Source: a virus
Lineage: Duplodnaviria; Caudoviricetes
Virus record (IMG/VR): IMGVR_UViG_3300027759_000043
DNA length: 64,000 bases
Reading direction: 5' to 3' (one strand)
Shown: piece by piece, positions 2,497 through 55,478 of the stretch
How the letters are laid out: every line of letters begins with the position of its first letter
Numbering within the stretch: position 1 is the first letter of the stretch
Made by a program: the position numbers and the translations under genes
Notes under the pieces: model-generated
The model's input: the letters and a program-made list of their open reading frames with translations, nothing else
What the model was told of the DNA's origin: nothing
Databases searched by the model: none

Positions 2497-2676
2497 ATGA
2501 CTACTATAACTGTTGAAGGTGCCGATCGAGCAATTGATGCGGGCATATGGCTTAATGAACAATGTATAGACTATCAAATTGATATGGAGCAAGTTTGGAC
2601 TAAGACCGAGCCTCGATATCAATTTCAATTTTCTAACACTAAAGACGCAACACACTTTGCATTACGATGGCGATAA
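2497..2676 (+). CDS. Small FxLRW-family protein 1
   Basis: Ends FQFSNTKDATHFALRWR. ATG 2497 lies at the predicted TSS (alternative GTG 2482). Confidence 0.75.
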   Translation: MTTITVEGADRAIDAGIWLNEQCIDYQIDMEQVWTKTEPRYQFQFSNTKDATHFALRWR

Positions 2677-2679
2677 GGT

Positions 2680-2907
2680 ATGTTCGAGCATGAACTACGC
2701 ATAGAACATGCCAGTCCCGACGACGGCATACGTTGGAGCCATGAATTGCAATGGTCCGGATTGATTCAGGGTCAAGACTATGTATGGCAGTACGTGCCGG
2801 CCTGGGATGACAACTTTGGATCACACACATCGCCTCGAGCCGTGGTGTTTGCATTTAGCAATCCTGCCATGGCCACATTTTACCAATTGAAATGGCAACA
2901 CACTTGA
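2680..2907 (+). CDS. Small FxLRW-family protein 2
   Basis: Ends FAFSNPAMATFYQLKWQHT. Confidence 0.75.
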   Translation: MFEHELRIEHASPDDGIRWSHELQWSGLIQGQDYVWQYVPAWDDNFGSHTSPRAVVFAFSNPAMATFYQLKWQHT

Positions 2908-3125
2908 TGAAACAACACATGTTACCTGAAACTGCTAGGATGTTTAGTCTGTGTGTGCATTGTGTGACTCCACGAAAAGATGCATACGGGCCAGACATCA
3001 TGCGTTGGCTCACTGAAAATATAGCAAAAACAGAAGCAGGGTTCAGGCCCTGGACTAGAACAGATCGAGAATTCAAATTCATGCACGAGCGTGATGCTAT
3101 AATGTTTGCACTCCGATGGTCATGA
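2907..3125 (+). CDS. Small FxLRW-family protein 3
   Basis: TGATG coupling. Ends FKFMHERDAIMFALRWS. Confidence 0.75.
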   Translation: MKQHMLPETARMFSLCVHCVTPRKDAYGPDIMRWLTENIAKTEAGFRPWTRTDREFKFMHERDAIMFALRWS

Positions 3126-3313
3126 CACATACAGTAAGAATACCCTGGCGAAAAGGCGACACCATCTCCAAGTGGGACGAAGTATGCATCTGGACCATTG
3201 AAGAATTTGGCCTGCCTGGCGAACGCTATACCACACACCCCACATCAGACTACATGGATTTTGTTTTCCAGCACAGCCGGGACGCTATATACTTCAAACT
3301 CCGATGGCTATAA
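3122..3313 (+). CDS. Small FxLRW-family protein 4
   Basis: ATGA coupling. Ends FVFQHSRDAIYFKLRWL. Confidence 0.75.
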   Translation: MTHTVRIPWRKGDTISKWDEVCIWTIEEFGLPGERYTTHPTSDYMDFVFQHSRDAIYFKLRWL

Positions 3314-3540
3314 AAACTGCTGAAGACACAATCCGACTGGGTGACAGTTTCAATCATGCCTGTAGAATTCAAAAAAACTATGGCGTGTTGGAAGAAATAT
3401 TGGCCTGGTCAAAAGAGTCATTGACTGCAGAATGGCGATGGCAATTGGTCAGTGTGAGTTCAGACGTCCGCCCCGGAGATTACATTTTCTACTTTGATAG
3501 CGAGCGTGACTACCTGGCATTTGTAATGAAATGGTTATAA
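3304..3540 (+). CDS. Small FxLRW-family protein 5
   Basis: Ends FYFDSERDYLAFVMKWL. Confidence 0.75.
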   Translation: MAIKTAEDTIRLGDSFNHACRIQKNYGVLEEILAWSKESLTAEWRWQLVSVSSDVRPGDYIFYFDSERDYLAFVMKWL

Positions 3541-3548
3541 GTAAAATT

Positions 3549-3836
3549 ATGCGTACACCCCAAGAACGAGACAAGAAAAATCTACGTATTCAACGTGACG
3601 AAAATGCTATTCGAAAGCAATCCAAGATTGCCCGAGCACATGGTATGGATGTAAAAGAGCCACACAAGTTCGCCAAGCATCATGCCATGGATTGTGGACA
3701 ACCAGGTTGTGTCTTGTGTGGCAACCCAAGAAAAACATTCAGCGAGTTGACCGCACAAGAAAAACGCCTGTTCCAAGATGCAGAACAGCCGCGTGACAAA
3801 CATTCAAACGGCTTGCCCCGGAATCAAGATGATTGA
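3549..3836 (+). CDS. Basic protein with putative Zn site
   Basis: HHAMDCGQPGCVLCGNPRK motif; rich in Lys/Arg. Confidence 0.7.
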   Translation: MRTPQERDKKNLRIQRDENAIRKQSKIARAHGMDVKEPHKFAKHHAMDCGQPGCVLCGNPRKTFSELTAQEKRLFQDAEQPRDKHSNGLPRNQDD

Positions 3837-4038
3837 CTTTGACATAACCATGCAAAGAATCAAGAACTTGGGCGAGTTTGAAGTTCAAGTCACTGTGCCT
3901 AAAACATTTAGTTTTCGTGGCCAGGTGCCCTGGGACATGCAGATACTAGGCGATCAGGCTTTTGTCACAGTGATCGCACCCAGCCTTACTGAGGCTCGAA
4001 GCAGAGTAGAAGAATATTTTAATTTCAAGGAAGAATAA
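3829..4038 (+). CDS. Hypothetical protein
   Basis: Coupled ORF MIDFDITMQRIK... Confidence 0.65.
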   Translation: MIDFDITMQRIKNLGEFEVQVTVPKTFSFRGQVPWDMQILGDQAFVTVIAPSLTEARSRVEEYFNFKEE

Positions 4039-4040
4039 AC

Positions 4041-4286
4041 ATGGACATGGATCAAGCGGCTGTATTTTTGGCCGGAAGTATATTGACAGCACTGGGGTTT
4101 ATTGTGGTATTGGTAGCCATAGTGATTGCCAACAACATCATACATCGTTGGTGGAAACCCTTGGGCTGGAACTTTGGATGGATCAGCGCACCCACAAGAT
4201 TTGCCACCCCAGAAGAACTAGAACAACCCCCAAAAATAGAACCTGTAATTGACAAGAAAAATGAACCGAAAGCAAAAACTAATTGA
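4041..4286 (+). CDS. Small membrane protein
   Basis: N-terminal TM (AVFLAGSILTALGFIVVLVAIVIA) followed by a charged tail. Confidence 0.7.
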   Translation: MDMDQAAVFLAGSILTALGFIVVLVAIVIANNIIHRWWKPLGWNFGWISAPTRFATPEELEQPPKIEPVIDKKNEPKAKTN

Positions 4287-4473
4287 GCAAGCAGGCTTCA
4301 GCCGGACCTTTGAAGCAGATAGATTGAATCACTTGATTGATCTCACAGTGAACCAGTGCATTGTTGCCATCACCAATTCTTCGCGAGATCACTGCCCCAC
4401 CACCTACGATCAGGATCAATGGGCCAGCACTATTGAACGCTGTGTTCGTAGCATAAAACAACAGTTTCGATAA
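4261..4473 (+). CDS. Hypothetical protein
   Basis: Overlapping co-oriented ORF; start 4249 or 4261. Confidence 0.6.
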   Translation: MNRKQKLIEQAGFSRTFEADRLNHLIDLTVNQCIVAITNSSRDHCPTTYDQDQWASTIERCVRSIKQQFR

Positions 4474-4475
4474 GA

Positions 4476-4504
4476 TTGACACACAAATATCCTTGTGTTA
4501 TACT
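4476..4504 (+). promoter_or_regulatory. Sigma70-type early promoter
   Basis: TTGACA-17-TATACT with a TG extension. Confidence 0.85.
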
Positions 4505-4525
4505 AGACTCAAATTGGAGAGTCGC

Positions 4526-4861
4526 ATGAGTACAAGTACTTTTGTTGTGGTTTGGGATAATTTGGGTTTGGAATATGTGGGCAACGTCACCGAGGACGAA
4601 CAACGCCGTGTGTGGGGCAAACTCAACGGCAAGCCTGTGCCAAGCCAACTGCCTAATGTGAATCATCTGTTGCTTCGTGCTAGATACAACAGCCAACGTC
4701 ACTATGAAATCTATTTGGTCAACGCCACGGATGGAATAACTACAGACGACATACGTGCGATGTTTGAGGCATCACCACAAACTGCCGCAGACACCATACG
4801 CACTCTTGGTCATTGCTACTACAGTGACCGAGTGAATAAAGATAAAATATTAATCACATGA
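4526..4861 (+). CDS. Conserved hypothetical phage protein
   Basis: GGAG RBS before ATG 4526; lies downstream of the promoter. Confidence 0.8.
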   Translation: MSTSTFVVVWDNLGLEYVGNVTEDEQRRVWGKLNGKPVPSQLPNVNHLLLRARYNSQRHYEIYLVNATDGITTDDIRAMFEASPQTAADTIRTLGHCYYSDRVNKDKILIT

Positions 4862-5415
4862 ACCAAAATATCATCGACGGCCTCAAAGCCTTTGACTGGC
4901 AAACCATTGTTGAATACGGCAACAGCCTTGACGATCTCAACAGCAGGCAATGGCGTTTTTTAAAAGGACTGGTGTGTGAACTCATCACAGAAAAATGTAG
5001 CAATGGTAACCTTGTCTATGTTGGCCAAGACCACAAAGATTTTGACTGGCCCAGGCACAATATCTCAATCTCAGTTGAATTAAAAAGTCAACTCAGTGCT
5101 AGAATGTACACCAAAAAAGGTCGGTTGAGAAAAAACTATCCCATCAAACTCAACAACAGTCACGGAACAAATGAAAAGAAAAAAATAGATGCCAAGGATG
5201 TGGCTGACATAATCATTGTGGTTCGTGATGATGGTGCGTTTATGATCGATCAAGCAACTGCAATCAAACATGCCAAACCAGCAGGTGATGGCTTTAATGT
5301 CACCGTCACCGGGGACGAAGTTATTGAGTTATCAGGTCTCGTTGTTCCAGACAAAGTATACACAACAAATCTCAAAGAAAAGATCATGACAGTGATCCGA
5401 GATTCTTTACCATAA
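4858..5415 (+). CDS. Possible PD-(D/E)xK nuclease-fold protein
   Basis: KGLVCE...KDFD...VELKSQ spacing resembles a restriction-endonuclease-like core. Confidence 0.4.
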   Translation: MNQNIIDGLKAFDWQTIVEYGNSLDDLNSRQWRFLKGLVCELITEKCSNGNLVYVGQDHKDFDWPRHNISISVELKSQLSARMYTKKGRLRKNYPIKLNNSHGTNEKKKIDAKDVADIIIVVRDDGAFMIDQATAIKHAKPAGDGFNVTVTGDEVIELSGLVVPDKVYTTNLKEKIMTVIRDSLP

Positions 5416-5424
5416 TGTAACAAA

Positions 5425-5442
5425 GTAGTACTTGAGTATTAC
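5425..5442. promoter_or_regulatory. Palindromic operator-like motif
   Basis: GTAGTACT-TG-AGTATTAC; exact reverse complement of 9069-9086. Confidence 0.6.
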
Positions 5443-5463
5443 TTTTGATTTTGCCATTTAAGG

Positions 5464-5492
5464 TTGACTTTTAATGGCGCCTATAGTATACT
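5464..5492 (+). promoter_or_regulatory. Sigma70-type early promoter
   Basis: TTGACT-17-TATACT. Confidence 0.85.
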
Positions 5493-5554
5493 TTGTTCTG
5501 TGTTAGCAATTAACACATTTTTTAACTTTATCGGCTTAGGCCAGAAAGACTACT

Positions 5555-5827
5555 ATGAGCGATACTTACACCGTTGCCGTTTTCAAAGATGAAACTTCTT
5601 ATAGCATGACCGTTCGCTGTCTTGCTCGCAACAAACATTTCAAGTACAATGTTGGTAACCCCAACTGCATTTACGACTCTACACAACCGGATCCCAAGAT
5701 GTTCACAATCCTGTTTGAGGGTTCTCAAACAGAAGCAGAGAAATTTGCTCATGTGATTGCGGCCGCTTACTCGTTGGTGGGCGTAAAGCGCGGACTTGTG
5801 AAAACTGAAGGAACTGACAATGAATAA
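5555..5827 (+). CDS. Hypothetical protein
   Basis: First ORF after promoter 5464. Confidence 0.7.
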   Translation: MSDTYTVAVFKDETSYSMTVRCLARNKHFKYNVGNPNCIYDSTQPDPKMFTILFEGSQTEAEKFAHVIAAAYSLVGVKRGLVKTEGTDNE

Positions 5828-6590
5828 AACAAACCACCGAGCCCTTGACGTTGAACTACAAAGACAACGTTACGGCGAAAACTCCGAACTACTCAAAGGT
5901 TTAGGATTCAACACAGATGTCATGAACATTCGACGTGTGGCCAGGGAATTAGCCACAGTTGATACTTGGCGTTACATGGAAACCAAAGGTCTTGAAGACC
6001 TCAAGGATTGTGTAACTGACTACGACTTGTATGAGTGGGTCACTAACACACAACTTGATCCCGCTTTGTTAAAAACAGGATTAATACTTGAGTTTGGTAC
6101 TGCAACTGGTCGCACACTGAATCAGTTTGCATATTGGTTACCCAATCAAACTATCTATGGTTTTGATGGTTGGCAAGGATTGCCAGAAAAGTTTAACGAC
6201 TTGGCAGAAGGACATTTTGCACAGGAGTTGCCTGAGGTACTTCCAAACTGTCAACTGGTAAAAGGTTGGTTTGGCAGTAAGCCTGCATGGGATAATTCTG
6301 GTATTGCAGAATTTACAGCACAAAAATTTGCTAGTGAGTGTTCGTTTCCAATTGCATTGTTGCATCTAGATGCAGATTTGTATGATCCAACTAAGACAGT
6401 TTTGGATGTATTTGCAAAACAGATTGTGCCAGGTACTGTGATTTTGTTTAACGAGTACTGGAATCATCCAACTTGGAAGAAACATGAATACCGGGCCTGG
6501 CAAGAGCATTGTAAAATGCATGGCGTTAAATATGAGTATATTGGCTATGCTAGTGATCATCAAGAGGTAGCGGTAAGAATTCTAAAATAA
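5820..6590 (+). CDS. TylF/MycF-like class I SAM O-methyltransferase
   Basis: LEFGTATGRTL, YGFDGWQGLPE, LLHLDADLY and ILFNEY motifs. Confidence 0.85.
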   Translation: MNKTNHRALDVELQRQRYGENSELLKGLGFNTDVMNIRRVARELATVDTWRYMETKGLEDLKDCVTDYDLYEWVTNTQLDPALLKTGLILEFGTATGRTLNQFAYWLPNQTIYGFDGWQGLPEKFNDLAEGHFAQELPEVLPNCQLVKGWFGSKPAWDNSGIAEFTAQKFASECSFPIALLHLDADLYDPTKTVLDVFAKQIVPGTVILFNEYWNHPTWKKHEYRAWQEHCKMHGVKYEYIGYASDHQEVAVRILK

Positions 6591-6617
6591 ATACATTTTA
6601 GAACAAAGGGTAACGGC

Positions 6618-7199
6618 ATGCAACTAAATGAAAGACTAGACCTTCAACAGGTGCAAACAATTGGCATTTTACGAGATGTACAAAATAGAAAAGTCGAACT
6701 TGAGTTTGAATCTACTAGAGAAAACTTTGACAGTAGAGCACGTAAATGCATCAGTGATGCCGCTACCTTAATTAATCTTGCCAAGGCCGGCAAAGATTAT
6801 AAAAAAAATAGACTGTATTTTTCTAGGTTCCAACCTTTCATTGACGCCAGAACGACTAAATTTGAAGTAGAATTAATGTCCCTCTATAGGGTTAGCACAG
6901 ATGGATCTCCAATTTCTACAGAGGTCAATCAAACCTCTAACCCTTCACCTGAAGAACTTGCTAAAAAACAACAAGAGTTAACGGATAGGTACAAAGCCGA
7001 AGACATGTTTGTTAATTATCTTAAAGATCCTAATAATCCAGTAACAATTGCATGGAAAGGCCTTACAAATAAAGCCGATGCTAAAGATCACATCATTGAA
7101 TTAATTCAATCTGGAAAGTCACCTGATGAAATTGCACGTGAACTAGGAAACGATCTGTATGAAAATTTTGTTACCCGATTAAGAAAACTTGTACCGTAA
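6618..7199 (+). CDS. Hypothetical protein, probably late
   Basis: TAAATA at 6588-6593 upstream; MQLNE N-terminus. Confidence 0.7.
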   Translation: MQLNERLDLQQVQTIGILRDVQNRKVELEFESTRENFDSRARKCISDAATLINLAKAGKDYKKNRLYFSRFQPFIDARTTKFEVELMSLYRVSTDGSPISTEVNQTSNPSPEELAKKQQELTDRYKAEDMFVNYLKDPNNPVTIAWKGLTNKADAKDHIIELIQSGKSPDEIARELGNDLYENFVTRLRKLVP

Positions 7200-7202
7200 A
7201 TA

Positions 7203-7231
7203 TTGACACAAAAAGATTTCTAGTGTATACT
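7203..7231 (+). promoter_or_regulatory. Sigma70-type early promoter
   Basis: TTGACA-17-TATACT. Confidence 0.85.
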
Positions 7232-7325
7232 AGAAACATGGTAGTGAATCCTACCGGCTAACCGATAAACAACGCTGTGACATAGGGTCACAGTATTGTA
7301 ATGGTTACGAACAAAAGGAAACATC

Positions 7326-8519
7326 ATGGCAACTGCCACACAAACCTACGCGGCTATAAAGAATGCCCGCTACACAAACTCCTCCTCTAATCTTGTTGAC
7401 CTAGTGCAACGCTACAACGACACTGTTGCCGCATTGCCAGTACAAGCACGCCGCAACCATCAAGCCAAACTCACCAAAGCACTAGCAACATTTAAAAAGA
7501 ACAACCCCGGACTCAAAAGCATTAACGATCCCAAGTTTCGTTTGTGCAAGAGCATTTCGGTCAAACTTAAAAGCATTCAAATTGACACCACCATGCAACG
7601 AGAACCTAACTTGCAGTGGGTTATCACCATTATCGAGAACTTCCGTGCATACCAAGCACAACCTATTCAGGTGTATGCTGTTGGCACCGCTGGTTATGGT
7701 GCGTGGGATGGCCAGCACACTAGCCTTGCACTTTACTTGATTGCCACACATGGTCTGGGCATGAACTTTGACGATGTTGAAGTACCTATCAACATTTACG
7801 ACATTGTAAGCCGTGGCGAGATTCGTGGTAACTTTATTAACAACAACACCACAGTGGGCAAGAATGCAGGTAAGAAGCCACTGGACATTATTGATATTTG
7901 GGTACAAATGATCTATGGTGTAGAAGTTGACGGTGTTACTGAACCGGAGTGGGTTATTGCCCATGCCAAGTGGAAAGCAATTGCTGACGCTGGTATGTTT
8001 TTGACTGCTGAAAAGTTCAATGACACTGAAGAACCGGGTGCCATTAGTCGTCTCAATGAGATCGCTGACGAAAGCATTTCAGTTGATACTGTTAAACGAT
8101 TTGCGGTATATGGCAAATATGTTGTGGACCTGCAACAACGACACATTAACACTAAGGAAATTCCTGTTATCATGGAATTGCTTAAATTGTGTCAGCAACA
8201 AGACATTGAATGGGATGACGCCACTATTGAAGATTTGGCTCAGCATTGTGTGGATTTGTTTGGCGCTAATTTTGACGCCGGGGGACAGTTTTGGAAACAG
8301 GCCCATCAGGCCACAATCAATGCTTACAACAAAGCCAACAGAGGCAACCCAACGCACTTGTGGCCCACTGCCCCTAAAAATAACAAGAATGTTGCTCAAG
8401 GTATTTCGTTTTTGTGGCATCAACTGATAACATCGTGGGTGCCTCAGCAAGGCAACGGGTTTAAGTTCCCCAAGCAACCATTCTCGGTGTACACACCTGA
8501 TGCCAAGGACTTGTTCTAA
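7326..8519 (+). CDS. ParB/Srx-fold (DGQHx) domain protein
   Basis: IQIDTTMQRE...PIQV...WDGQHTSLAL; AAGGA RBS. Confidence 0.7.
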   Translation: MATATQTYAAIKNARYTNSSSNLVDLVQRYNDTVAALPVQARRNHQAKLTKALATFKKNNPGLKSINDPKFRLCKSISVKLKSIQIDTTMQREPNLQWVITIIENFRAYQAQPIQVYAVGTAGYGAWDGQHTSLALYLIATHGLGMNFDDVEVPINIYDIVSRGEIRGNFINNNTTVGKNAGKKPLDIIDIWVQMIYGVEVDGVTEPEWVIAHAKWKAIADAGMFLTAEKFNDTEEPGAISRLNEIADESISVDTVKRFAVYGKYVVDLQQRHINTKEIPVIMELLKLCQQQDIEWDDATIEDLAQHCVDLFGANFDAGGQFWKQAHQATINAYNKANRGNPTHLWPTAPKNNKNVAQGISFLWHQLITSWVPQQGNGFKFPKQPFSVYTPDAKDLF

Positions 8520-8520
8520 T

Positions 8521-9072
8521 ATGACTACATTAATGGAACGTGTCGGTGGGTTCACGCAAACAAAACTCACACCGGTCAAGCGTGGCGGCGCTAGTTATGA
8601 TGCAACATATCGATGGGCTGTAACTAAAATTACTGATGCTGTTGCAAAATACAAAGCACACACTGTTGAAGATCAATATGCACGATTGCTTCGCGACGAC
8701 ATAGAGTTTGCTTTGCGTCGATATCAAAACTATGCAATTAAAGAAAACATTGGCGCTCACTATTTTGAAAAAGGTCTACGGTCTGGTGTCAAAACAGAGT
8801 TTGAGCATGTGATTCCGGCCAGGGTGGCTCGTGACTTGTTGTTGCGTGACCGTCTCACAATTGGAGAAGCACTTGATATCCCAACTTGTCGCTTGAGTGC
8901 CACAAAACACAAGAAGTTGAACTCAACCAAGTTGGGTTCAACTACACCGGACATTTATTGGTTTTGGCAACGCTATCAATCCTTGGGTATTAAACTTGAA
9001 ACATATGATGGCACCCCAGTTGACATGGCCACATGGAATCTAGACAGTCATTACACGTATTTCAAAGTGTAA
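8521..9072 (+). CDS. Putative HNH/DUF1524-like protein
   Basis: EFEHVIP motif; starts 1 nt after the ParB-like gene. Confidence 0.5.
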   Translation: MTTLMERVGGFTQTKLTPVKRGGASYDATYRWAVTKITDAVAKYKAHTVEDQYARLLRDDIEFALRRYQNYAIKENIGAHYFEKGLRSGVKTEFEHVIPARVARDLLLRDRLTIGEALDIPTCRLSATKHKKLNSTKLGSTTPDIYWFWQRYQSLGIKLETYDGTPVDMATWNLDSHYTYFKV

Positions 9073-9086
9073 TACTCAAGTACTAC
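9069..9086. promoter_or_regulatory. Palindromic operator-like motif
   Basis: GTAATACT-CA-AGTACTAC, 11 nt upstream of the -35 box. Confidence 0.6.
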
Positions 9087-9097
9087 CATATTTTTGG

Positions 9098-9126
9098 TTG
9101 ACCAATAATTGCCCATTTGCTATAAT
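9098..9126 (+). promoter_or_regulatory. Sigma70-type early promoter (copy 1)
   Basis: TTGACC-17-TATAAT; identical to 9813-9841. Confidence 0.9.
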
Positions 9127-9156
9127 ATACGCATAGACAGCAAAAAGGAGCCCAGT

Positions 9157-9387
9157 ATGGGATACAAGGTAATTGCAGATCGTTTTGAAACAGACATGAT
9201 GCGCCAAAAATATGGCCCCCGCAAAGGGCTTGAAGGTCCGTTCATGTATGCGTCGGGTCGTGTGCTCTACTATGATCCTCGAGAGGGCCGGTACTGGGAT
9301 CCACGTACTGACTTTTATGTTAGTAACGAAGAAATGGATGCTGAACACGGCATTCTTGTGCAACGTCTTGTAGATTTTCAAAGGTAA
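9157..9387 (+). CDS. Conserved hypothetical phage protein
   Basis: AAGGAG RBS before ATG 9157; GRVLYYDPREGRYWDPRTDFY. Confidence 0.8.
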   Translation: MGYKVIADRFETDMMRQKYGPRKGLEGPFMYASGRVLYYDPREGRYWDPRTDFYVSNEEMDAEHGILVQRLVDFQR

Positions 9388-9391
9388 TATT

Positions 9392-9808
9392 TTGCTTTAT
9401 TTTGCTTATGGTATGAACACAAATCGGACAGGCATGTCTCAGCGATGCCCCGGCGCCCTTAGCCTTGGCCATGCTCGCTTGATTGACAGGTGCTTTAGAT
9501 TTGCCAATCACGCAGATGTGATCAAATGCAAGGGCGCCTACGTGGATGGCGTGCTATGGGCTATTGACGATTTTCACTTGAAAAGTCTAGACAGTTTAGA
9601 GGGTTATCCTTTTTACTACAATCGCAGAGCCTTGCGTGTGGCACATGAAGATCGTGTTGTGATGGCAGAAACTTATTTTATGCAACCCGGCAATTTGGAT
9701 GCTTGGCCCAGTCAGCACTATTTTGACATGGTGGTTGAAGGCTATCGGGAACACAATGTGCCCACAGAACAACTGTTTAATAGTGTGTACGAAAGTACTA
9801 CATTTTAA
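9392..9808 (+). CDS. Gamma-glutamylcyclotransferase (GGCT/AIG2-like)
   Basis: LYFAYGMN, VDGVLW, LDSLEGYP motifs. Confidence 0.85.
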   Translation: MLYFAYGMNTNRTGMSQRCPGALSLGHARLIDRCFRFANHADVIKCKGAYVDGVLWAIDDFHLKSLDSLEGYPFYYNRRALRVAHEDRVVMAETYFMQPGNLDAWPSQHYFDMVVEGYREHNVPTEQLFNSVYESTTF

Positions 9809-9812
9809 AAGG

Positions 9813-9841
9813 TTGACCAATAATTGCCCATTTGCTATAAT
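9813..9841 (+). promoter_or_regulatory. Sigma70-type early promoter (copy 2)
   Basis: TTGACC-17-TATAAT; exact duplicate of 9098-9126. Confidence 0.9.
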
Positions 9842-9873
9842 ATGGACATAGAGTAACAAAACAGGAGCCCCAA

Positions 9874-10185
9874 ATGGAAAAACTTAGCACTATTCAGCAA
9901 ATCAATTCTGCTATCATGTTTGGCACGTGGACTGACGTAGAACTTCGTAGCATGGCCGATGCTATCCGTTTCAATCAGATCAGCCTTCGCAAGCAGGTCA
10001 AACGTAATCTGGACGTGGGCGTTCGAGTGCGTTGGGTTAGTTCCAAGAACCCCGCAGGTGCTACAGGCAAGGTAACTAAGATTGCTATTAAATATGTCAC
10101 AGTCCGCAGTGATCGAGACGGTGGTTTGTGGAAGATCCCTGCTAACATGCTAGAGATCATTGAAGGTCAAATGGCGACAGTATGA
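9874..10185 (+). CDS. Hypothetical protein (SH3/KOW-like C-terminus possible)
   Basis: AGGAG RBS; LDVGVRVRW...GKVTKIAIKYVTV...WKIPANMLE. Confidence 0.75.
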   Translation: MEKLSTIQQINSAIMFGTWTDVELRSMADAIRFNQISLRKQVKRNLDVGVRVRWVSSKNPAGATGKVTKIAIKYVTVRSDRDGGLWKIPANMLEIIEGQMATV

Positions 10186-10242
10186 GTACCGCAACGGTTG
10201 TGATCATAATTTTATTAATCGAAACAATTAGGAATATTTAAT

Positions 10243-11028
10243 ATGCCAGGATTTGTAGACGTAACAAATATGACAGCAAGAGAAGTTCGCATGATGGATC
10301 ACGCGGCCGACTATGATGAGCCTGCTGGTTATCAGCCACGTCGTCAATGGAAGTCTCGTGCCAAGCCCGAGGGTGTGAAACATTCTGTGGACAATGTATG
10401 GGCGGCGGCAGTGGCGGCACAACGTATCAATGGCTCTTATATTAAAGAGACTGTGTACAAGGTTGACCCAGAAATGTCTAGTAATACTGTGATTGATAAA
10501 CGTCGCAACCGCGATATCATGGTGGACATCCTTGCTAACCCTGCTGTACTTACTGTGGAAGATATTGCACAGGGTCAGGAGTGCCGCAAGTTCTTGCAAA
10601 ACGACATTACCTTCCGTGCTCTCAAAAACAAACTCACAGAGTTCGATGGCTCTGTCAGTAAAGTGCTGGCAGTTGAAGATGACTTTGATACAGTCAAACA
10701 CAAATTGGAATTGGCTGTGGTTGCGTGTCTGCCACAAAGTCATACTCGTACACTAGAGCGTCAAGCAGTTCAAGATCGTGTGCGCCAAACATCCGGCGAC
10801 CATGTGGGCCAGCCCGGCGACAAGGTTCAACTGGACGTGGAGATCATCAAGTCAAACTACAGTCAGCAATGGAACACTTGGTACGCCACTGCTATTACTC
10901 CAGACAATCATGCTGTGTTTTTTGCATACCGCCAAGAACTGGCCAAGGGTGCAAAACACACTATCCAAGGAACCGTCAAGGCTCACAGAGACGGCTCCAC
11001 TCAACTCAACCGTGTGAGCATTATCTAA
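10243..11028 (+). CDS. Phage protein with C-terminal OB-fold-like domain
   Basis: HVGQPGDKVQLDVEI...IQGTVKAH...TQLNRV. Confidence 0.7.
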   Translation: MPGFVDVTNMTAREVRMMDHAADYDEPAGYQPRRQWKSRAKPEGVKHSVDNVWAAAVAAQRINGSYIKETVYKVDPEMSSNTVIDKRRNRDIMVDILANPAVLTVEDIAQGQECRKFLQNDITFRALKNKLTEFDGSVSKVLAVEDDFDTVKHKLELAVVACLPQSHTRTLERQAVQDRVRQTSGDHVGQPGDKVQLDVEIIKSNYSQQWNTWYATAITPDNHAVFFAYRQELAKGAKHTIQGTVKAHRDGSTQLNRVSII

Positions 11029-12544: not shown

Positions 12545-12573
12545 TTGACATACCGCGTGTAGGCGTATATAAT
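12545..12573 (+). promoter_or_regulatory. Sigma70-type promoter, leaderless transcript
   Basis: TTGACA-17-TATAAT with ATG 7 nt downstream. Confidence 0.85.
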
Positions 12574-12579
12574 AGCACT

Positions 12580-12810
12580 ATGTCTACTACACCAATTGTT
12601 GTTACTTGGCACCAGGCCTTGCTGTCTGCGGGCAGTGCCGAATCGGACTCAGTTTGGCAACAGGATCAACTGTTGACGGAATGGATAGGCAACCGCTCAG
12701 TTCGTGTGATTGAACTAAACAATCATGCGTATGAATCAATTGCCAACATAGAAGATCTACCCCCAGTAGATATTGTCATAATCAAGGAGAAATCAAATGA
12801 CCAATCATGA
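12580..12810 (+). CDS. Hypothetical protein
   Basis: ATG at the predicted TSS. Confidence 0.65.
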   Translation: MSTTPIVVTWHQALLSAGSAESDSVWQQDQLLTEWIGNRSVRVIELNNHAYESIANIEDLPPVDIVIIKEKSNDQS

Positions 12811-12982
12811 ACAAATCGTAGCCGCCTACGAAACTTACCTCGCCGAAAACGAGAAATTCACCTCCAAAGGTGTCAAGGCTGCGGCTGCTCGTGCCCGCAA
12901 AGCACTACAAGAAATGACCAAAGGCATCAAAGAACGCCGTAAAGAAATCACAGCAGAAAAAGAAGCCCTAGCCGCCAAGTAA
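12797..12982 (+). CDS. Histone H1-like Hc1-family protein
   Basis: ENEKFTSKGVKAAAARARKALQEM...RRKEI; AAGGAG RBS. Confidence 0.75.
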   Translation: MTNHEQIVAAYETYLAENEKFTSKGVKAAAARARKALQEMTKGIKERRKEITAEKEALAAK

Positions 12983-13173
12983 TGACAACAGCACAAGTGG
13001 TTGAAGATCCAGACCATCCCGGAGAGTTACTCTTGGATCTGGGTCTTGAATTGTGTGCCCAACTTGGTTGGCAAGTGGGCGACACAATTGAATGGATAGA
13101 TCAAAAGGACGGCACATGGCTAATGACCAAATCAGTCTCGACGAATACATTGCCCAACTCAACACAAGAGTAG
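12982..13173 (+). CDS. AbrB/MazE/SpoVT-like DNA-binding protein
   Basis: GELLLDLGLELCAQLGWQVGDTIEW pattern. Confidence 0.65.
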   Translation: MTTAQVVEDPDHPGELLLDLGLELCAQLGWQVGDTIEWIDQKDGTWLMTKSVSTNTLPNSTQE

Positions 13174-13625
13174 AAGACTTTAAAGTATCTTCTCCAATTA
13201 ATTTTGGGCAAATGGGTCTTACACCCATTGAGCCTTTGACCTACAGTAGTGGCACCAGCGACCCCTACTACGGTGCTGTGCCTAATGTAAATGTTGGCAG
13301 TGGTATTAATGTCAGCAGTCCTGTTTGGACTACCAATACCACTGCTGGCCAGTATAGTTTTTCTGGACAAAACATACAGCCTGGCGGCAAAGTCGTTATC
13401 CAAGGTGAGAACGCTGATCTTGTGATAGGCGACAAAAGTATGAAAGCCTGGATGGAGCGGGTTGAAGAACGTCTCAACATCCTAACACCCAATCCTGAAA
13501 TGGAGAAGGAATGGGATCAATTGCGTAAGTTAGGTGCGAGATATCGTAAGTTAGAGAAAAAATGCAAGGAAAAATCAGACATGTGGAACAAACTAAAGGC
13601 TATGCCTAAACCGGAGATCAAATGA
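13116..13625 (+). CDS. Hypothetical protein with coiled-coil C-terminus
   Basis: AAGGA RBS before ATG 13116. Confidence 0.7.
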   Translation: MANDQISLDEYIAQLNTRVEDFKVSSPINFGQMGLTPIEPLTYSSGTSDPYYGAVPNVNVGSGINVSSPVWTTNTTAGQYSFSGQNIQPGGKVVIQGENADLVIGDKSMKAWMERVEERLNILTPNPEMEKEWDQLRKLGARYRKLEKKCKEKSDMWNKLKAMPKPEIK

Positions 13626-14395
13626 CGCCCCGACAAAGAATCAAACACATTACCAAATGGATCAAGACCTATGCCAAGAGTGCCAAAATCAACACTTTGG
13701 TAGTGGGAATTTCAGGAGGCATCGACTCCAGTGTGGTATCCACGCTGTGTGCTGAAACAGGACTCAAGACCATTGTAGTCCAAATGCCCATCCGTCAGAA
13801 TCGAAAACTAGATAATCGCAGTAGTATGCAGGCCGACTGGTTGCTGGAACGCTACAAAAACGTCACCTATGTGAGCATGGATCTAACCCCAGTGTTCACA
13901 GCATTTGAAAAGAAACTTGAGCCCATTTGTCGGGACAGCACGGATATAACTTTGGCATTTGCCAACTCACGTGCTAGATTGCGCATGATGACCCTGTATC
14001 AAATTGCTCAAAGTTATGGTGGTATTGTTGTGGGCACAGGCAACCGGGTAGAAGACTTTGGTGTGGGATTTTTTACCAAATACGGTGACGGTGGTGTAGA
14101 TATTTCGCCCATTGGCGATTGCATGAAAACTGCTGTGTGGAGCATGGGTCGTGAGTTTGGCTTACCCCAAGAAATTATTGACGCAGAACCTACTGACGGA
14201 CTCTGGGACGATGGACGCACCGACGAGGGACAACTAGGCATGACTTACACAGAACTAGAAACCATGATGCAATTGGACGAGGCTGGGTTTGAGCCTGCGC
14301 CCAAAGATCGAGGCAAAATGAAACAGTATCGAGCAATTCGTGCTAGAAATCTGCACAAGATGGAACCAATTCCTGTGTGCAAAATCACTGAGTAA
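13622..14395 (+). CDS. nadE: NH3-dependent NAD+ synthetase
   Basis: VVGISGGIDSS, NSRARLRM, GTGNRVE, FFTKYGDGGVD, PTDGLW motifs. Confidence 0.93.
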   Translation: MTPRQRIKHITKWIKTYAKSAKINTLVVGISGGIDSSVVSTLCAETGLKTIVVQMPIRQNRKLDNRSSMQADWLLERYKNVTYVSMDLTPVFTAFEKKLEPICRDSTDITLAFANSRARLRMMTLYQIAQSYGGIVVGTGNRVEDFGVGFFTKYGDGGVDISPIGDCMKTAVWSMGREFGLPQEIIDAEPTDGLWDDGRTDEGQLGMTYTELETMMQLDEAGFEPAPKDRGKMKQYRAIRARNLHKMEPIPVCKITE

Positions 14396-14477
14396 ACTAC
14401 GCCGTTTACCTCAAAACGGCACCATTTCGACCCGGTCTTGGCCTGGTTCTGCAATCAATTGAGTAAGTAAAACTACC

Positions 14478-15053
14478 ATGAAAGCACAAGTAAATCACAT
14501 CAGCGATCAACTCGCAACATGGAGTCTACGAGCCTTCCGAGTCACAGGACTTTGGATTGTGGCTTTAGCAGTAATTACTGTTAGTAACCACAAACTCAAT
14601 CAACTCCGTTCGGGCATTGAATCAATGCCTGCTGGTTACGTTTCGGCCACAGAAAAAATCCGTCAACTAGATTGTCTTACACGTAACATCTACTGGGAAG
14701 CCGCAAGTGAGCCTTTCGAAGGCAAAGTTGCTGTGGCCCAAGTCACAATGAACAGACTGGCATCCGGACGCTTTGGCGATAGTGTCTGCGGAGTAATCTA
14801 TCAAAAAAACGTATTCTACGAACGAGTAATCTGCCAGTTCTCGTGGGTATGCGAAAGCACACATAAAACTCGGCCAGTGTATCAACCCTTGTGGGCAGAA
14901 TCAGAATTAGTGGCTAAAAAAGTTCTACTGGAAAACTTTAGACTTCCTGGCTTAAAAGGCGCACTTTATTATCACGCAGATTATGTTAGCCCGGGTTGGC
15001 AAAAGCCCCGAATTGATAAAATTGGTCGTCACATCTTTTACGGAGAACGTTAA
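14478..15053 (+). CDS. Cell wall hydrolase (Hydrolase_2/SleB-like)
   Basis: CLTRNIYWEAASEP...AVAQVTMNR...CQFSW...ALYYHADYV...IGRHIFY; N-terminal TM. Confidence 0.9.
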   Translation: MKAQVNHISDQLATWSLRAFRVTGLWIVALAVITVSNHKLNQLRSGIESMPAGYVSATEKIRQLDCLTRNIYWEAASEPFEGKVAVAQVTMNRLASGRFGDSVCGVIYQKNVFYERVICQFSWVCESTHKTRPVYQPLWAESELVAKKVLLENFRLPGLKGALYYHADYVSPGWQKPRIDKIGRHIFYGER

Positions 15054-15367
15054 TGCCCTTCAATTTCCCTGTTGCAATTGTTGCCCTTCGTGACTACATT
15101 ACCAATAGCCTGGCACGACTTAGTGCAGACACACTGGGTTGGCTTGCCGCTATTGTATTGCATTGTGCAACCCTGCCCAGTTTTCTAGCATTGATGACCG
15201 GGCTATCAGATAAAACTCCAAGTTTAGACATCATCTTGTTCCTCTGGAGCGGCCTGGTTCTGCTGTTCATGCGAGCAGTGGTCTTGAAAGACATGCTGAA
15301 CATCATCACCATTGGGTTTGGATTTATACTACAAGCCGGATTCATGGCCTTGATATTATTCAAATGA
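15053..15367 (+). CDS. Three-TM membrane protein
   Basis: Three hydrophobic helices; TAATG coupling. Confidence 0.75.
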   Translation: MPFNFPVAIVALRDYITNSLARLSADTLGWLAAIVLHCATLPSFLALMTGLSDKTPSLDIILFLWSGLVLLFMRAVVLKDMLNIITIGFGFILQAGFMALILFK

Positions 15368-15861
15368 CCCCGCAAGAGATTGAACAAAAGTTAACTGACT
15401 GGATGGTTAACTTTGTTGAAAAGCCTCACCCTGGACTGGGTAACTGGTCACCATGCCCTTATGCCAGGCAGGCCAGACTCGCCAATCGGATTGAAATTGT
15501 ACACTCTGATCATCAAAGATTAATCACCACAGTCGAACAGGTGCTACCACTACTGGAAGAAAAAGAAGTTGTGGTGATTTATTTTGATCATACTAAAATT
15601 TCTGCTCAGGACTTGGAAAAACTAATTAAAGTATACAACCAGCAGGTGCTGATGGCAAGGAACTATGTGATCCTTGAGGACCATCCAGATGCTGTAGAAT
15701 TGGTTAATGGCGTTCACATGAACTTTGGGCATTGTGGATTATTGGTAATTCAAAAATTAAATAAACTAACAACAGCAAGTGAACAACTCAAATCAAAAGG
15801 TTACTATGACACATGGAATCAGTCTGAATTGGATCAAGTGGTAACATGGCGAAGTCAATAA
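15364..15861 (+). CDS. DUF1415-like protein
   Basis: WMVNFVEKPHPGLGNWSPCPYA resembles the DUF1415 LCPFA motif; LEDHP. Confidence 0.5.
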   Translation: MTPQEIEQKLTDWMVNFVEKPHPGLGNWSPCPYARQARLANRIEIVHSDHQRLITTVEQVLPLLEEKEVVVIYFDHTKISAQDLEKLIKVYNQQVLMARNYVILEDHPDAVELVNGVHMNFGHCGLLVIQKLNKLTTASEQLKSKGYYDTWNQSELDQVVTWRSQ

Positions 15862-16292
15862 AATTCTGCAGAATTGATTTATCAAAAACCAATTACGCAC
15901 TTTATCCCGGTGCCGAACGATTCTCCTGGTCCAGTGGCCTAGAGCCTTATGAACAAATCTATCGGGACTACTGTGCCCATAAACAGTTTGCGAGTGTGAT
16001 GCCTTTATTCTTGCAACAGTTTCAGGACTCGCACAACGACACACATGTGTATCGAAACGGCACAGACATTGTGGCCTGGAGTCTATGCCGGCGGTGGGAT
16101 CAGCGCAATGCAGAAAGTCTTCAGTTTGCCTGGAACTATCATGAACCTGAACTAGAACTGGGCCGACGTAGTCTTGAACACGAGTGCGCATACTACAAAC
16201 AACTGGGCTATGAGTATCTATATCTAGGACAGGAGGCCGAATACAAAACTAGATTTGACGGCTACGAACAATTGGGTAAGTTAAATGTATAA
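15846..16292 (+). CDS. Arginyl-tRNA-protein transferase C-terminal (ATE_C)-like GNAT
   Basis: LELGRRSLEHECAYYKQLGYEYLYLG...YK resembles ATE1/Bpt SLG...YVYLGY. Confidence 0.65.
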   Translation: MAKSIKFCRIDLSKTNYALYPGAERFSWSSGLEPYEQIYRDYCAHKQFASVMPLFLQQFQDSHNDTHVYRNGTDIVAWSLCRRWDQRNAESLQFAWNYHEPELELGRRSLEHECAYYKQLGYEYLYLGQEAEYKTRFDGYEQLGKLNV

Positions 16293-17310
16293 TGTATATC
16301 AGCATTGGGATCCATTGAAGGTCTGTATAGTTGGGCGTAGTTATCCTCCAGAATTTTATAACTTTATTGCTGATACAAAAGTTCGCAATGTTATGGAGCG
16401 TATAGCCATAGAAACCGAAGAAGATTATCAAAAACTAATCAAATTATTAGAATCTTTTAATGTGAAGGTGTTGCGTCCAGAAATTGTTGAGTTTAGTAAT
16501 TATTTGGTGCCCGACAACTCTAAATACATCACTCCCCCAATGACCCCAAGAGATTATAGTATAATGCTGGGAGAACAATTTTATTTTAAAACTAATAGTT
16601 TTTCTGAATGGGAGATGTTGACCTGGGGCAAAGTCCTGGGAGAAATTCAACAACAAGGTAACAATGTAATTTTTTCAGCAGAGCCCGAATTTGAAAATTT
16701 TAATTCTGCTATGGCCACTAGAATTGGCAAAGACATATACCAAGGATCAGGAACCTATGATGAAGATCTAACAAAAAAAATGCAGGTGTACTCAAAAACA
16801 TACCCCGAACATCGTTGGCATGCCATCAATACCGGAGGTCATGCTGATGGTACTTTTTGTCCTGTTGTACCTGGATTAATTATCAGTCTCTATGACATTC
16901 CAACTTATGCCAAAACCTTTCCGGACTGGGAAGTTGTTTATTTGCCCGGACAAAGTTGGCATGCTATACCCGAGTTTGAAAAACTCAAAATCAAGAATGC
17001 TGGCAAATGGTGGGTACCAGGGCAAGAATTCAATGATGATTTTACTGAATTTGTTGAGTCATGGTTGAGTCATTGGGTAGGATATGTAGAAGAAACTGTG
17101 TTTGATGTCAACATGTTGGTAGTAGATCAAAAGAATGTGATCTGCAACAACTACAACCAACAGGTATTTGATGCACTAGAAAGACACGGAGTGACTCCAC
17201 ATATTGTGAACTTTAGACACAGATATTTCTGGGATGGTGGCTTGCATTGCATTACCAGTGATGTACATCGAGAAGGTACTATGCAAGATTATTTTCCAGA
17301 AAGAGGTTAA
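16285..17310 (+). CDS. Amidinotransferase family protein
   Basis: WDPLKVCIVG, PMTPRD, GHADGTF, RHRYFWDGGLHCIT motifs. Confidence 0.85.
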   Translation: MYNVYQHWDPLKVCIVGRSYPPEFYNFIADTKVRNVMERIAIETEEDYQKLIKLLESFNVKVLRPEIVEFSNYLVPDNSKYITPPMTPRDYSIMLGEQFYFKTNSFSEWEMLTWGKVLGEIQQQGNNVIFSAEPEFENFNSAMATRIGKDIYQGSGTYDEDLTKKMQVYSKTYPEHRWHAINTGGHADGTFCPVVPGLIISLYDIPTYAKTFPDWEVVYLPGQSWHAIPEFEKLKIKNAGKWWVPGQEFNDDFTEFVESWLSHWVGYVEETVFDVNMLVVDQKNVICNNYNQQVFDALERHGVTPHIVNFRHRYFWDGGLHCITSDVHREGTMQDYFPERG

Positions 17311-17311
17311 C

Positions 17312-17644
17312 ATGGATTTATACACAATTTGGGCAGACAAACAAGGTGACATAACAGATCTAGAATGGGTCACAGGAATGAAGAGTTTCTTTGATCATTT
17401 GATCTCAGAAGGCCGGATGGAAAGTTACAGAATCACAAGATGCAAAATGGGATTCCGTAGCATAGCCAACATGCCAGAATGGATGATTATCATGGAGTTC
17501 CATGACATGGGTCAGATGGATTCAGCATTCAAACGAGTGGCACCACTCGAAGGTGAACTCGAAGTCAAGCACAAAAGTTTCAACCAGTTTGTAGGGGGCA
17601 ATATACAACATGCCTTGTTTAGAGACTGGCCTGATCAGTTTTAA
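17312..17644 (+). CDS. Hypothetical dimeric alpha/beta-barrel-like protein (DUF6614-like)
   Basis: GAGG RBS; YRITRCKMGFRS...EWMIIMEF...LFRDWPD. Confidence 0.6.
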   Translation: MDLYTIWADKQGDITDLEWVTGMKSFFDHLISEGRMESYRITRCKMGFRSIANMPEWMIIMEFHDMGQMDSAFKRVAPLEGELEVKHKSFNQFVGGNIQHALFRDWPDQF

Positions 17645-17665
17645 TATTACAGAAATTCATATTAT

Positions 17666-18862
17666 ATGAAAAAATACGCTCATATTTCCAAGGCAGATTA
17701 TGATACAGTGGCTGGCCCAGACTGGCCACCGTTCTCTGAATTCCAACACAGTCTAGACGTTCCTGAATTTGTCTACGCCGAATTGGATAGTATGATCAGA
17801 CCACCTGAAGGATTTTCACATCCTACTTTTTGTGTTCTTCCTTTCTATGCCATGGAATATCCGCAACAAACACCGTGTTGTTTAATGTCAGCAGAAGAAT
17901 CTTTGAAAGAAGTTCAACAAAAAATGTTGGCAAAACAACGACCAATGTCATGCAAAAAATGTTGGCATTTGGAGGACAACGGTTTAAAAAGTGACCGTCA
18001 AATAAAAAATGAAACGTTGGACCATTTCAGCAATATTGATCTTGAACAATTGATAGAACAAAGTCTCCAAGGCAAAAACAAAACTGTTCATTACAAAGTT
18101 GATACCAGTAATACTTGTAATGCCGCCTGCGCATCTTGTAATGGGAATGCCAGTAGTACCTGGAATAAACTGCTGAAAAAAAATAATTTTACAGCATTTA
18201 AAGATTGGAAAATTTTACCCGAACAAACCTCTAACTGGATTGATTACACAAATGCTGTGTCTTTATCATTTAGAGGAGGCGAGTCGTTTCTTAGCAATAC
18301 TAATTTTTACATACTTGAGCAACTGATTGCACACAACAATACCGACTGTTTTGTAAGTTTTGTGACTAATGGAAGTTTTCGTTTGACAAAAAGTCAGAAA
18401 GCCATCTTGTCACAATTTAAAAATTTAAATTTTTGTTTCAGCATTGACGGCATAGGTTCAACATTTGAATATCTAAGATGGCCATTGAAATGGACAGATA
18501 TTGAACACAATATCTCATGGTGTAAAACAAATCATATAGACATTAGCGTGAGTTATACCTTGAGCAATTTAAATTTATTATATTATCCACAAACTATACA
18601 ATGGTTCAAAGATAATGACTTAAATTATTTGGTTAGTCCAGTTGTTTCACCCAAGCATTTTCGTCCCCAATCACTGTCGGCTGAAGTAAAACAAAAATTT
18701 CATAGTCATCCAAATCATGAATATTTTGCCCCATGGTTGACACACGAGTCAACTGATAATGAGTTATTTGCTGAGTTCGAATTTGAAATAGCCAGGCAAG
18801 ACAAAATGAAAAATATTTCCATACGCAATTATTTGCCCGAACTAGTTGGACTGTTGGACTAG
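17666..18862 (+). CDS. Radical SAM protein with twitch/SPASM-like domain
   Basis: CNAACASC, FRGGESFL and FSIDG motifs; FCVLPF...PCC...CKKCW. Confidence 0.88.
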   Translation: MKKYAHISKADYDTVAGPDWPPFSEFQHSLDVPEFVYAELDSMIRPPEGFSHPTFCVLPFYAMEYPQQTPCCLMSAEESLKEVQQKMLAKQRPMSCKKCWHLEDNGLKSDRQIKNETLDHFSNIDLEQLIEQSLQGKNKTVHYKVDTSNTCNAACASCNGNASSTWNKLLKKNNFTAFKDWKILPEQTSNWIDYTNAVSLSFRGGESFLSNTNFYILEQLIAHNNTDCFVSFVTNGSFRLTKSQKAILSQFKNLNFCFSIDGIGSTFEYLRWPLKWTDIEHNISWCKTNHIDISVSYTLSNLNLLYYPQTIQWFKDNDLNYLVSPVVSPKHFRPQSLSAEVKQKFHSHPNHEYFAPWLTHESTDNELFAEFEFEIARQDKMKNISIRNYLPELVGLLD

Positions 18863-18879
18863 TAATACTAGAGTATTAC
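18862..18879. promoter_or_regulatory. Palindromic operator-like motif (perfect)
   Basis: GTAATACT-AG-AGTATTAC, 1 nt upstream of the -35 box. Confidence 0.65.
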
Positions 18880-18880
18880 A

Positions 18881-18909
18881 TTGACTCATAATCATGTTTC
18901 TGCTATAAT
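18881..18909 (+). promoter_or_regulatory. Sigma70-type promoter, leaderless transcript
   Basis: TTGACT-17-TATAAT; ATG 7 nt downstream. Confidence 0.85.
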
Positions 18910-37145: not shown

Positions 37146-37665
37146 AGGTCTTGGCTACAAAGACCTTGAGGGCATACTAAAGCCCACTATTCACGTGGAC
37201 GAATTCTCATCCAAAATGGGCGATGATGACGACATCATTGTACTCAGTTTCTTCACACGTGACAAAGCCGCTGCCAAGGATCTAATGAATTGGTTTGAAA
37301 AGGGCTATGACTTTGTGCTGGATGCTGATCAAAGCCCCGGTGAAATCAAGCCCAATAGATATCTAGTGTATGTGGAAATGCGACGTCGCAGAGCCGCTCC
37401 TGAACAGATCAATGAACTGCTGGAAGACCTGGGCACACTAACAGAGTTTGATCCTGCGGACTGGACCATGGTCTACAAGGAAAAGACACATCCTTGGAGC
37501 CCTGAAGAGTTTGCACGTTTGGTGCCACTCAGTCCAAGAGAGTATCGTGAGCGTACAGAGCGTGATCTAAACGAATGGCGCACGGCCGCAGGCTTGCCTG
37601 TGAAGCCTACTTACGAGCGAGATGATGCCATTCGCACAATACAATCAGCGGCAGGTATCATATGA
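37081..37665 (+). CDS. Conserved hypothetical late protein
   Basis: LLEGLGYKDLEG...; overlaps the upstream gene end. Confidence 0.7.
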   Translation: MHNNHYNNQEHQLQPHRQSLLEGLGYKDLEGILKPTIHVDEFSSKMGDDDDIIVLSFFTRDKAAAKDLMNWFEKGYDFVLDADQSPGEIKPNRYLVYVEMRRRRAAPEQINELLEDLGTLTEFDPADWTMVYKEKTHPWSPEEFARLVPLSPREYRERTERDLNEWRTAAGLPVKPTYERDDAIRTIQSAAGII

Positions 37666-54695: not shown

Positions 54696-55478
54696 ATGCC
54701 CGATCACTATGCAACGCTGGGTGTTGCTCGAACTGCCACTGCTGATGAGATCAAACGGGCTTTTCGCAAACTAGCCAGTAAAAATCATCCGGACAAGGGT
54801 GGTGATACTAAAAAATTTCAAGAGATCCAGGTCGCCTATGATGTGCTAGGCGATGTGGCCAAACGGTCTCAGTACGACAATCCACAACCACAGTTCGGTG
54901 GCGGACCAAACTTCAATGCCAACTTTGATTTCAACACCATCTTTGACATGTTTGGTGCCAAGTTTCAACAACAGCATCCACAACGCCCACAACACTCAAG
55001 AATGACTCTTTGGATCACCTTACAGGATGTGGCCTACCCTGGACCCAGAACAGTAAGCATGGGCACCCACACAGGCGCACACAATGTACAAGTGAACATT
55101 CCCAATGGCATCGAAGATGGTGATCATGTGAAATACGACAACATTGCTCCAGGTGGTCAAGACCTGGTGATCACCTATAGAATTCATCCCAATCCACGCT
55201 GGCAACGCAACAGTGCCACACTCATAACCGAAACACCTGCCAGTTTCTGGTGCTTGGTTGCCGGTGGTGATATCACAGTTGTGGACATTCTTGGCAATCA
55301 ATTGGCTCTGACTGTGCCGGCCAATACCGCACCCGGAACGCTGTTACGTGCTAGAGGTCGCGGATTACCGGACAGATCAGGCACACGTGGAGACATGCTG
55401 GTTCGACTACAGGCCACTTTGCCTGCTGTAGTTTCTCCAGAATTAATGGCTGCTATCAAACAAGAAATTGGTGGCTAA
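54696..55478 (+). CDS. dnaJ: DnaJ/CbpA-type J-domain co-chaperone
   Basis: DHYATLGV...HPDKGGD; C-terminal DnaJ_C; no Zn finger. Confidence 0.9.

Follow-up and report, generated by a model that had tools for sequence, protein, structure and literature searches.

The 64,000-nucleotide stretch analysed here (the window) comes from the virus IMGVR_UViG_3300027759_000043 (Duplodnaviria; Caudoviricetes) and carries a module of four genes, which we call A, B, C, and D, followed by a radical SAM gene, E (Table 1). An initial annotation, made from the letters alone, had described four coupled genes for arginine chemistry, and the coupling is confirmed: the overlap is 16 nt between A and B and 8 nt between B and C, and a gap of 1 nt separates C from D. 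The D open reading frame spans 17234–17644, and the ATG at 17312 is the start in all D homologues. The module is real and translationally coupled, and it lies in an early-type operon of an uncultured, T4-like giant phage from fresh water; the stretch is present in freshwater metagenomes of several studies. The module is a variant of a known biosynthetic logic; it occurs widely among uncultured phages, and none of its members has been characterised.

Table 1. Genes of the module and neighbouring features in the window
Feature	Position	Strand	Assignment
Gene A	15364..15861	+	165 aa; probable thiolate-haem monooxygenase of the sandwich-fold class (DUF6875/'cytochrome P422', DUF1415, AglA-like)
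Gene B	15846..16292	+	148 aa; stand-alone ATE_C-type GNAT, predicted aminoacyl-tRNA-dependent aminoacyl transferase
Gene C	16285..17310	+	341 aa; amidinotransferase-fold (guanidino-modifying) enzyme; accessory, inserted between B and D
Gene D	17312..17644	+	110 aa; DUF6614 protein, most conserved member of the module
Gene E	17666..18862	+	Twitch-domain radical SAM protein; neighbour, probably outside the module, second insertion
Promoter-like site	12545..12573	+	Perfect sigma-70-type TTGACA-17-TATAAT, consensus match only; head of the co-directional run
Promoter-like site	18881..18909	+	Sigma-70-type TTGACT-17-TATAAT with TG; marks the end of the unit

The genes were followed in related loci using either D or A as the anchor, counted separately, with flanks of at least 3 kb required for the D anchor. 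When D is the anchor, A and B are both present in 45/45 loci and C in 4/45; when A is the anchor, B is present in 51/51, D in 46/51, and C in 18/51. The neighbourhood is thus conserved among relatives, but the fixed four-gene cluster of the initial annotation has to be narrowed: the genes are linked and recur in hundreds of viral contigs (pattern scans find the A and D families in more than 540 viral contigs each, a lower bound), whereas these counts make the triad A-B-D the conserved unit and C an accessory gene that adjoins it in 9–35% of loci. The gene orders found are ABD, AbD, ABCD, ACBD, ABDC, and B with a, c, and d on the opposite strand. Next to the module, most phages have baseplate-hub and recombination genes.

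Three observations nevertheless tie C functionally to the triad. In a tree of 73 C-family proteins, whose sampling is biased to triad loci, triad adjacency changes at least 5 times on well-supported branches and 11 times by parsimony, and judging from this tree the association of C lineages with the triad was gained or lost no fewer than five times. A C::D fusion protein of 489 aa with a full DUF6614 domain (P0279) is encoded beside A and B at locus L220, 5001–6470 (also L221 and L222), and it is identical in ENA, Logan, and JGI assemblies. Finally, a C-family gene lies somewhere in 16 of the 18 large triad-bearing contigs.

The AlphaFold2 model of A (mean predicted local distance difference test score, pLDDT, 94.8) has seven helices around a four-stranded sheet, as in the sandwich fold of cytochrome P422. 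Against the ESM Atlas it matches a cluster labelled DUF1415/DUF6875 with a template modelling (TM) score of 0.82, as well as bacterial proteins in which DUF6875 is joined to tryptophan dioxygenase or an ATP-grasp ligase. The 'DUF1415-like' label given earlier therefore holds by fold, with DUF6875 the better sequence match: A scores 22.1 bits against Pfam DUF6875 (PF21780; gathering score 24.5), 14 of 21 relatives match DUF6875 and 5 of 21 match DUF1415, and PF21780 is the precomputed label of two close homologues. Members of the DUF6875 family, since renamed cytochrome P422, are haem hydroxylases of the sandwich fold with a Cys ligand and a conserved RxGxVCP motif (bioRxiv 10.64898/2025.12.11.692455). 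In A the Cys-Pro of this motif is kept (Cys31-Pro32, invariant across 21 relatives) but the Arg, Gly, and Val positions are not; Asp106, His107, Glu112, Asn120, Tyr148, Trp151, and Arg163 are also kept across the same relatives. The P422 tryptophan hydroxylases are thus the closest sequence family of A, sharing its seven helices, four strands, and Cys-Pro, although the score falls below the cut-off and the partners and hosts differ.

Among solved structures, an exhaustive structural search with A returned a sole outlier, AglA (9ub3_A), at a Z score of 7.2 and a root-mean-square deviation of 4.2 over 149 of 165 residues; the runner-up reached 4.1. Foldseek against the PDB gave no clear match (AglA at TM 0.38), and a profile of A searched against solved structures returned noise only. 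AglA, the type example of the YqcI/YcgG haem enzymes, has the sandwich fold and ligates haem through Cys44 (PMC12866846). Neither A nor its relatives match Pfam YqcI_YcgG (PF08892), and when A was aligned with six YqcI/YcgG proteins using hhalign, only the Cys motif aligned, with Cys31 on their invariant Cys and a probability of 1%, so that a link between A and this family is consistent yet unproven. Together, the sequence family and the modelled fold indicate that A is probably a thiolate-haem monooxygenase of the sandwich-fold class. A complex prediction of A, haem, and B scored 0.00 and has no bearing either way. A weak tblastn match to A at 37456–37539 (E 0.023) was rejected, as no paralogue was seen there on inspection.

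Gene B had been read as the C-terminal GNAT of the aminoacyl-tRNA-protein transferases ATE1 and Bpt, and this reading survives in part. ATE_C is its sole Pfam family match (20.7 bits, cut-off 25), and 14 of 18 relatives match ATE_C (best E-value 1.1e-6) and no other acetyltransferase family. In a profile search the core aligns with Kluyveromyces lactis ATE1, including the stretch ...W-D/Y...LG...E...Y-L-Y-L-G that is shared with ATE_C. The top solved matches to the AlphaFold2 model (pLDDT 90.6), all aligned over the full length, are FemX (Z 13.8), MprF (13.7), and L-PGS, an MprF/aaPGS protein (13.5), with ATE1 and Sbb17 also among them, so that aminoacyl-tRNA-dependent enzymes stand on top. 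What does not carry over from ATE1 and Bpt is the ATE_N domain, which was found neither in B nor in its relatives: B starts at the GNAT core, is short, and scores below the cut-off. The alternative that B is an ordinary acetyltransferase is not upheld, since B is ATE/Fem/MprF-like, and from family and fold B most likely draws an amino acid from charged tRNA. Among candidate longer or fused forms of B there was one dubious homoserine-dehydrogenase fusion, and a B-D read-through protein (P0287) looks frameshifted; neither was kept.

Gene C is recognised by phmmer as a relative of the solved enzymes AGAT, SxtG, HsvA, and StrB1 (E 3e-12 to 5e-8), while no Pfam family, including the amidinotransferase model, matches it at E up to 1. 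The amidinotransferase identity proposed earlier, with its PRD (residues 88–90), H-x-D (H186-A-D188), and GGLHC (318–322) motifs, is borne out by alignment to human AGAT, in which Asp90 corresponds to Asp170, His186 to His303, Asp188 to Asp305, and Cys322 to Cys407. C thus has in common with AGAT, StrB1, SxtG, and HsvA, its closest solved relatives, the catalytic Cys and His and the two guanidino-binding Asp residues. Across 165 family members Asp90 is kept in 158, His186 in 162, Asp188 in 163, and Cys322 in 160. The initial annotation had also noted NSAM in place of DAAD, and indeed FNSAM of C aligns to FDAAD of AGAT in phmmer, which puts Asn140 at the triad residue Asp254, in a segment where the alignment is weak. 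Position 140 is N in 45, D in 25, S in 19, C in 13, and P in 11 of the 165 sequences; because it varies freely, the change from Asp to Asn is typical of the whole family and is not decay. Unlike the AGAT group, the C family therefore has a variable third triad residue, and it is largely viral or metagenomic (853 cluster representatives in an exhaustive search). C may hydrolyse its substrate rather than transfer the amidino group.

The C family clearly has more than one job, as C genes also sit without the triad beside a UDP-sugar dehydrogenase and a UvdE-like TIM-barrel protein. In five loci (L003, L010, L013, L024, and L040) two or three C paralogues are clustered with these two genes and one for a 172-aa protein, an arrangement that suggests an amidino- or guanidino-sugar pathway; the cluster of L003 lies at 2604–10720, and in L003 and L004 an A-B-C-D module is embedded in such a cluster. 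The only relative of C in a cultured phage is ORF266 of Synechococcus phage S-SCSM2R (L001, 6001–6894; 32% identity), which lies beside 2-oxoglutarate oxygenases and KdsA/KdsB and is reported to be in the virion proteome (PMC12801897).

Gene D matches Pfam DUF6614 (PF20319) at 76.5 bits (gathering score 25), as do 14/14 relatives. Over 93 non-identical loci the mean pairwise identity is 79% for D, 60% for B, and 48% for A, and D is more identical than A in 99.7% of pairs. The conservation of D extends to its DNA sequence in many phages that occur together. In four metagenomes, with contigs counted at an 85% identity threshold, summed contig depth is 10 to 100 times as high on D (17184–17705) as on the genes beside it. 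Feature matches in the ESM Atlas to DUF4286, DUF6974, and EthD-like clusters (0.89–0.91) are leads only, and a profile search of D against solved structures gave nothing usable. Druad1, a 44-aa anti-Druantia protein labelled DUF6614 in a preprint, was not used, being too short and with homologues undetectable. In other phages a 350-aa gene often lies 3′ of D; it had no match in Pfam, PHROG, or PDB.

These assignments resemble a characterised pathway. In argolaphos biosynthesis of Streptomyces monomycini, Arg is attached to an amine in a tRNA-dependent manner and its guanidine is then hydroxylated by a Cys-ligated haem enzyme: AglA N-hydroxylates the guanidine of AMPn-Arg, a substrate that was prepared with AglC, ArgRS, and tRNA (PMC12866846). 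AglA is the best solved match of A, and A and B are an obligate pair, as that logic requires. By analogy, we propose, with a probability of roughly 45%, that B couples an amino acid carried by tRNA to an amine, A hydroxylates the product, and C modifies a guanidino group. The folds, conserved residues, linkage, insertion, and fusion are observed; which donor and acceptor are used, in what order the enzymes act, and what they make are inferred. In the first step, B would join an amino acid, plausibly arginine, from aminoacyl-tRNA onto an amine acceptor. A would then hydroxylate the product of B on nitrogen or carbon with electrons of the ferredoxin type from the host, as in AglC/AglA. Where it is present, C would make or remodel a guanidino group through a covalent Cys-amidino intermediate, and D would partner these enzymes, in some phages through physical attachment to C. 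The pathway could yield a small hydroxyguanidine-type metabolite or leave a mark on a macromolecule. An amidinotransferase in the module argues for a guanidino group in the substrate, and the bacterial ATP-grasp-DUF6875 fusions follow the same ligase-plus-oxygenase logic. The arginine or guanidino chemistry proposed in the initial annotation therefore gains weight from the likeness of A to a haem enzyme that N-hydroxylates tRNA-dependently attached arginine.

Several points weigh against this proposal. The roles of A, B, C, and D are all predicted from sequence and models. The link between A and AglA is one fold match, and a Z score of 7.2 is a level that the search tool describes as common for best hits. 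Both A against DUF6875 and B against ATE_C score under the curated cut-offs, and fold separates B weakly from acetyl-CoA GNATs (Z 13.8 vs ~12). No redox partner encoded by the phage was identified. Since most triads have no C beside them, it is not established that the core acts on a guanidino substrate. The module also differs from AglC/AglA in being viral, in carrying DUF6614 and sometimes an amidinotransferase, and in lacking phosphonate genes, in addition to the missing YqcI_YcgG match of A.

The alternative that fares best is that the module writes N-degrons, with A oxidising an N-terminal residue, B adding a destabilising residue, and phage ClpS, ClpA, and ClpP degrading the tagged host proteins. 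In eukaryotes, N-terminal Cys oxidation precedes arginylation by ATE1. The only sequence family of B is ATE_C, a protein-transferase family, and the promoter is of the early type. The initial annotation had pointed to a phage ClpA at 55560 as making such a route conceivable, and a ClpA/B-type double AAA+ ATPase of 778 aa is indeed encoded at 55497–57833. ClpS, ClpA-like, and ClpP genes travel with the module: ClpS occurs in 8 of the 18 large triad-bearing contigs, a count that covers triad-bearing contigs alone, and these include all three that are at least 86% complete (one copy is at G404:C1:306097–306330). The presence of ClpS and of the ATPase has thus lent this alternative some weight. 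The ATPase gene lies directly 3′ of a DnaJ-like gene (54696–55478), and an ATPase paired with DnaJ could be a disaggregase like ClpB instead of ClpA. However, ClpS never lies close to the module and may be a trait of the lineage, and tblastx did not find it in the 64-kb window, a search of the window only. To our knowledge, bacterial ClpS does not recognise N-terminal Arg, which also counts against this route. Furthermore, B lacks ATE_N, the characterised relatives of A and C use free amino acids or small pseudo-peptides, and there is no sign of a protein substrate. We consider N-degron writing unlikely on balance. A more elaborate form, in which the triad is a multi-step writer, DUF6614 supplies the missing tRNA- or substrate-binding part, and the amidinotransferase widens the range of N-termini that can be processed, appears somewhat less likely again.

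Hypermodification of nucleic acids would have B aminoacylate a DNA or RNA base from charged tRNA and A and C tailor the adduct against host defences. There is a precedent in Mom of phage Mu, the one characterised phage GNAT that uses charged tRNA, which modifies DNA adenine with Gly-tRNA (PMC13219725). Early expression fits, and the regions of T4-like genomes that hold the module are hyperplastic, with genes for homing endonucleases and recombination next to it. Yet Mom belongs to another GNAT family and acts alone, and no resemblance of B to it was seen; B matches ATE_C, and Mom is not among the matches listed in the fold searches with B. A TGT/DpdA gene was found in 0 of the 18 triad-bearing contigs, two of which are more than 90% complete, leaving a 7-deazaguanine route unsupported, and no DNA-binding feature was seen. 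We regard hypermodification as improbable.

Improbable to a still greater degree is remodelling of the envelope, with B acting like FemX or MprF on a peptidoglycan precursor or a membrane lipid and A, C, and D tailoring the added residue. It would account for the best fold matches of B, which are full-length matches to FemX and MprF/aaPGS, and a cell-wall hydrolase gene lies two genes upstream in this lineage. The catalytic units of Fem and MprF, however, are two GNAT lobes and B is one, the hydrolase neighbour is limited to close relatives, and no membrane segment is evident. Lastly, that these are unrelated accessory genes of a common hyperplastic region with no joint pathway is very hard to credit: C and the radical SAM gene do come and go as single-gene insertions, and the C family does occur in sugar-type clusters without the triad, but the linkage statistics argue against this for A-B-D, the start/stop overlaps are retained, and C acquired its link to the triad in repeated, independent events and is even fused to D.

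The argolaphos-like proposal and its rivals are directly testable with three or four small, soluble-looking proteins. The module joins three enzyme types, each rare or unknown in viruses, and the haem-thiolate oxygenase class to which A would belong was described only in 2025. A product of the hydroxyguanidine type would be a further natural product made by phages, and if proteins are tagged, the module would be the first viral N-degron writer. In either case the triad, carried by over 500 contigs of uncultured phages but by none of the 50,697 phages deposited and essentially no cellular genomes, represents a common viral function that has not been named.

The deposited phages were searched with B and D by tblastn and with the region by megablast, and neither search gave a match. 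In 185,579 prokaryote species genomes B occurs in three places, all of them A-B-(C)-D and all on metagenome-bin contigs, and DUF6614 was not found in 400 other genomes of the phylum of those bins. Two contigs of one Haliscomenobacter bin, L049 (183 kb) and L050 (148 kb), carry separate A-B-D copies. Both probably belong to giant phages and were placed in the bin of the bacterium, a possible hint at the host.

Compared with its closest relative, L025 (82–85% nucleotide identity), the window contains exactly two extra segments, 16277–17311 with C and 17647–18872 with E, and the coupling is intact at the joints. C is absent at this exact site in L025–L027 and E is absent at its site in L025–L028. 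GC content at third codon positions is 0.32 for C and 0.31 for E, compared with 0.45 for the window. Contigs from independent samples span the B/C and D/E junctions with zero differences. One contig from an independent freshwater metagenome (run X3) instead joins 17640 to 18890, bringing D directly up to the palindrome and promoter-like region downstream, with 27 other letters replacing E, which means that variants with and without the radical SAM gene coexist.

The initial annotation had noted that a radical SAM gene follows the cluster. E is present there and matches NCBIfam NF033640 (188.8 bits, cut-off 170), but it is a separate insertion and is not specifically linked to the module. Of 107 loci, 62 have twitch radical SAM paralogues no more than 3.5 kb from B, but just 21 have them on the same strand. 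As such paralogues are abundant in these phages and few are on the strand of B, we do not count E in the module. A second twitch radical SAM paralogue, 27% identical to E, lies at 31783–32973 in the window, and related loci often have three to five such genes.

All genes across 12580–18862 are on the + strand, and a 104-aa gene 5′ of A overlaps it by 4 nt. With promoter-like sites at either end of this run, the module appears to lie inside one early-type unit, together with genes for NAD synthetase and the cell-wall hydrolase. The upstream site suggests early transcription by the host polymerase, and the T4 late promoter motif TATAAATA was not found in the 64-kb window. Between the stop codon of E and the second promoter-like site there is an 18-bp palindrome (18862–18879), which coincides exactly with the right edge of the E insertion.

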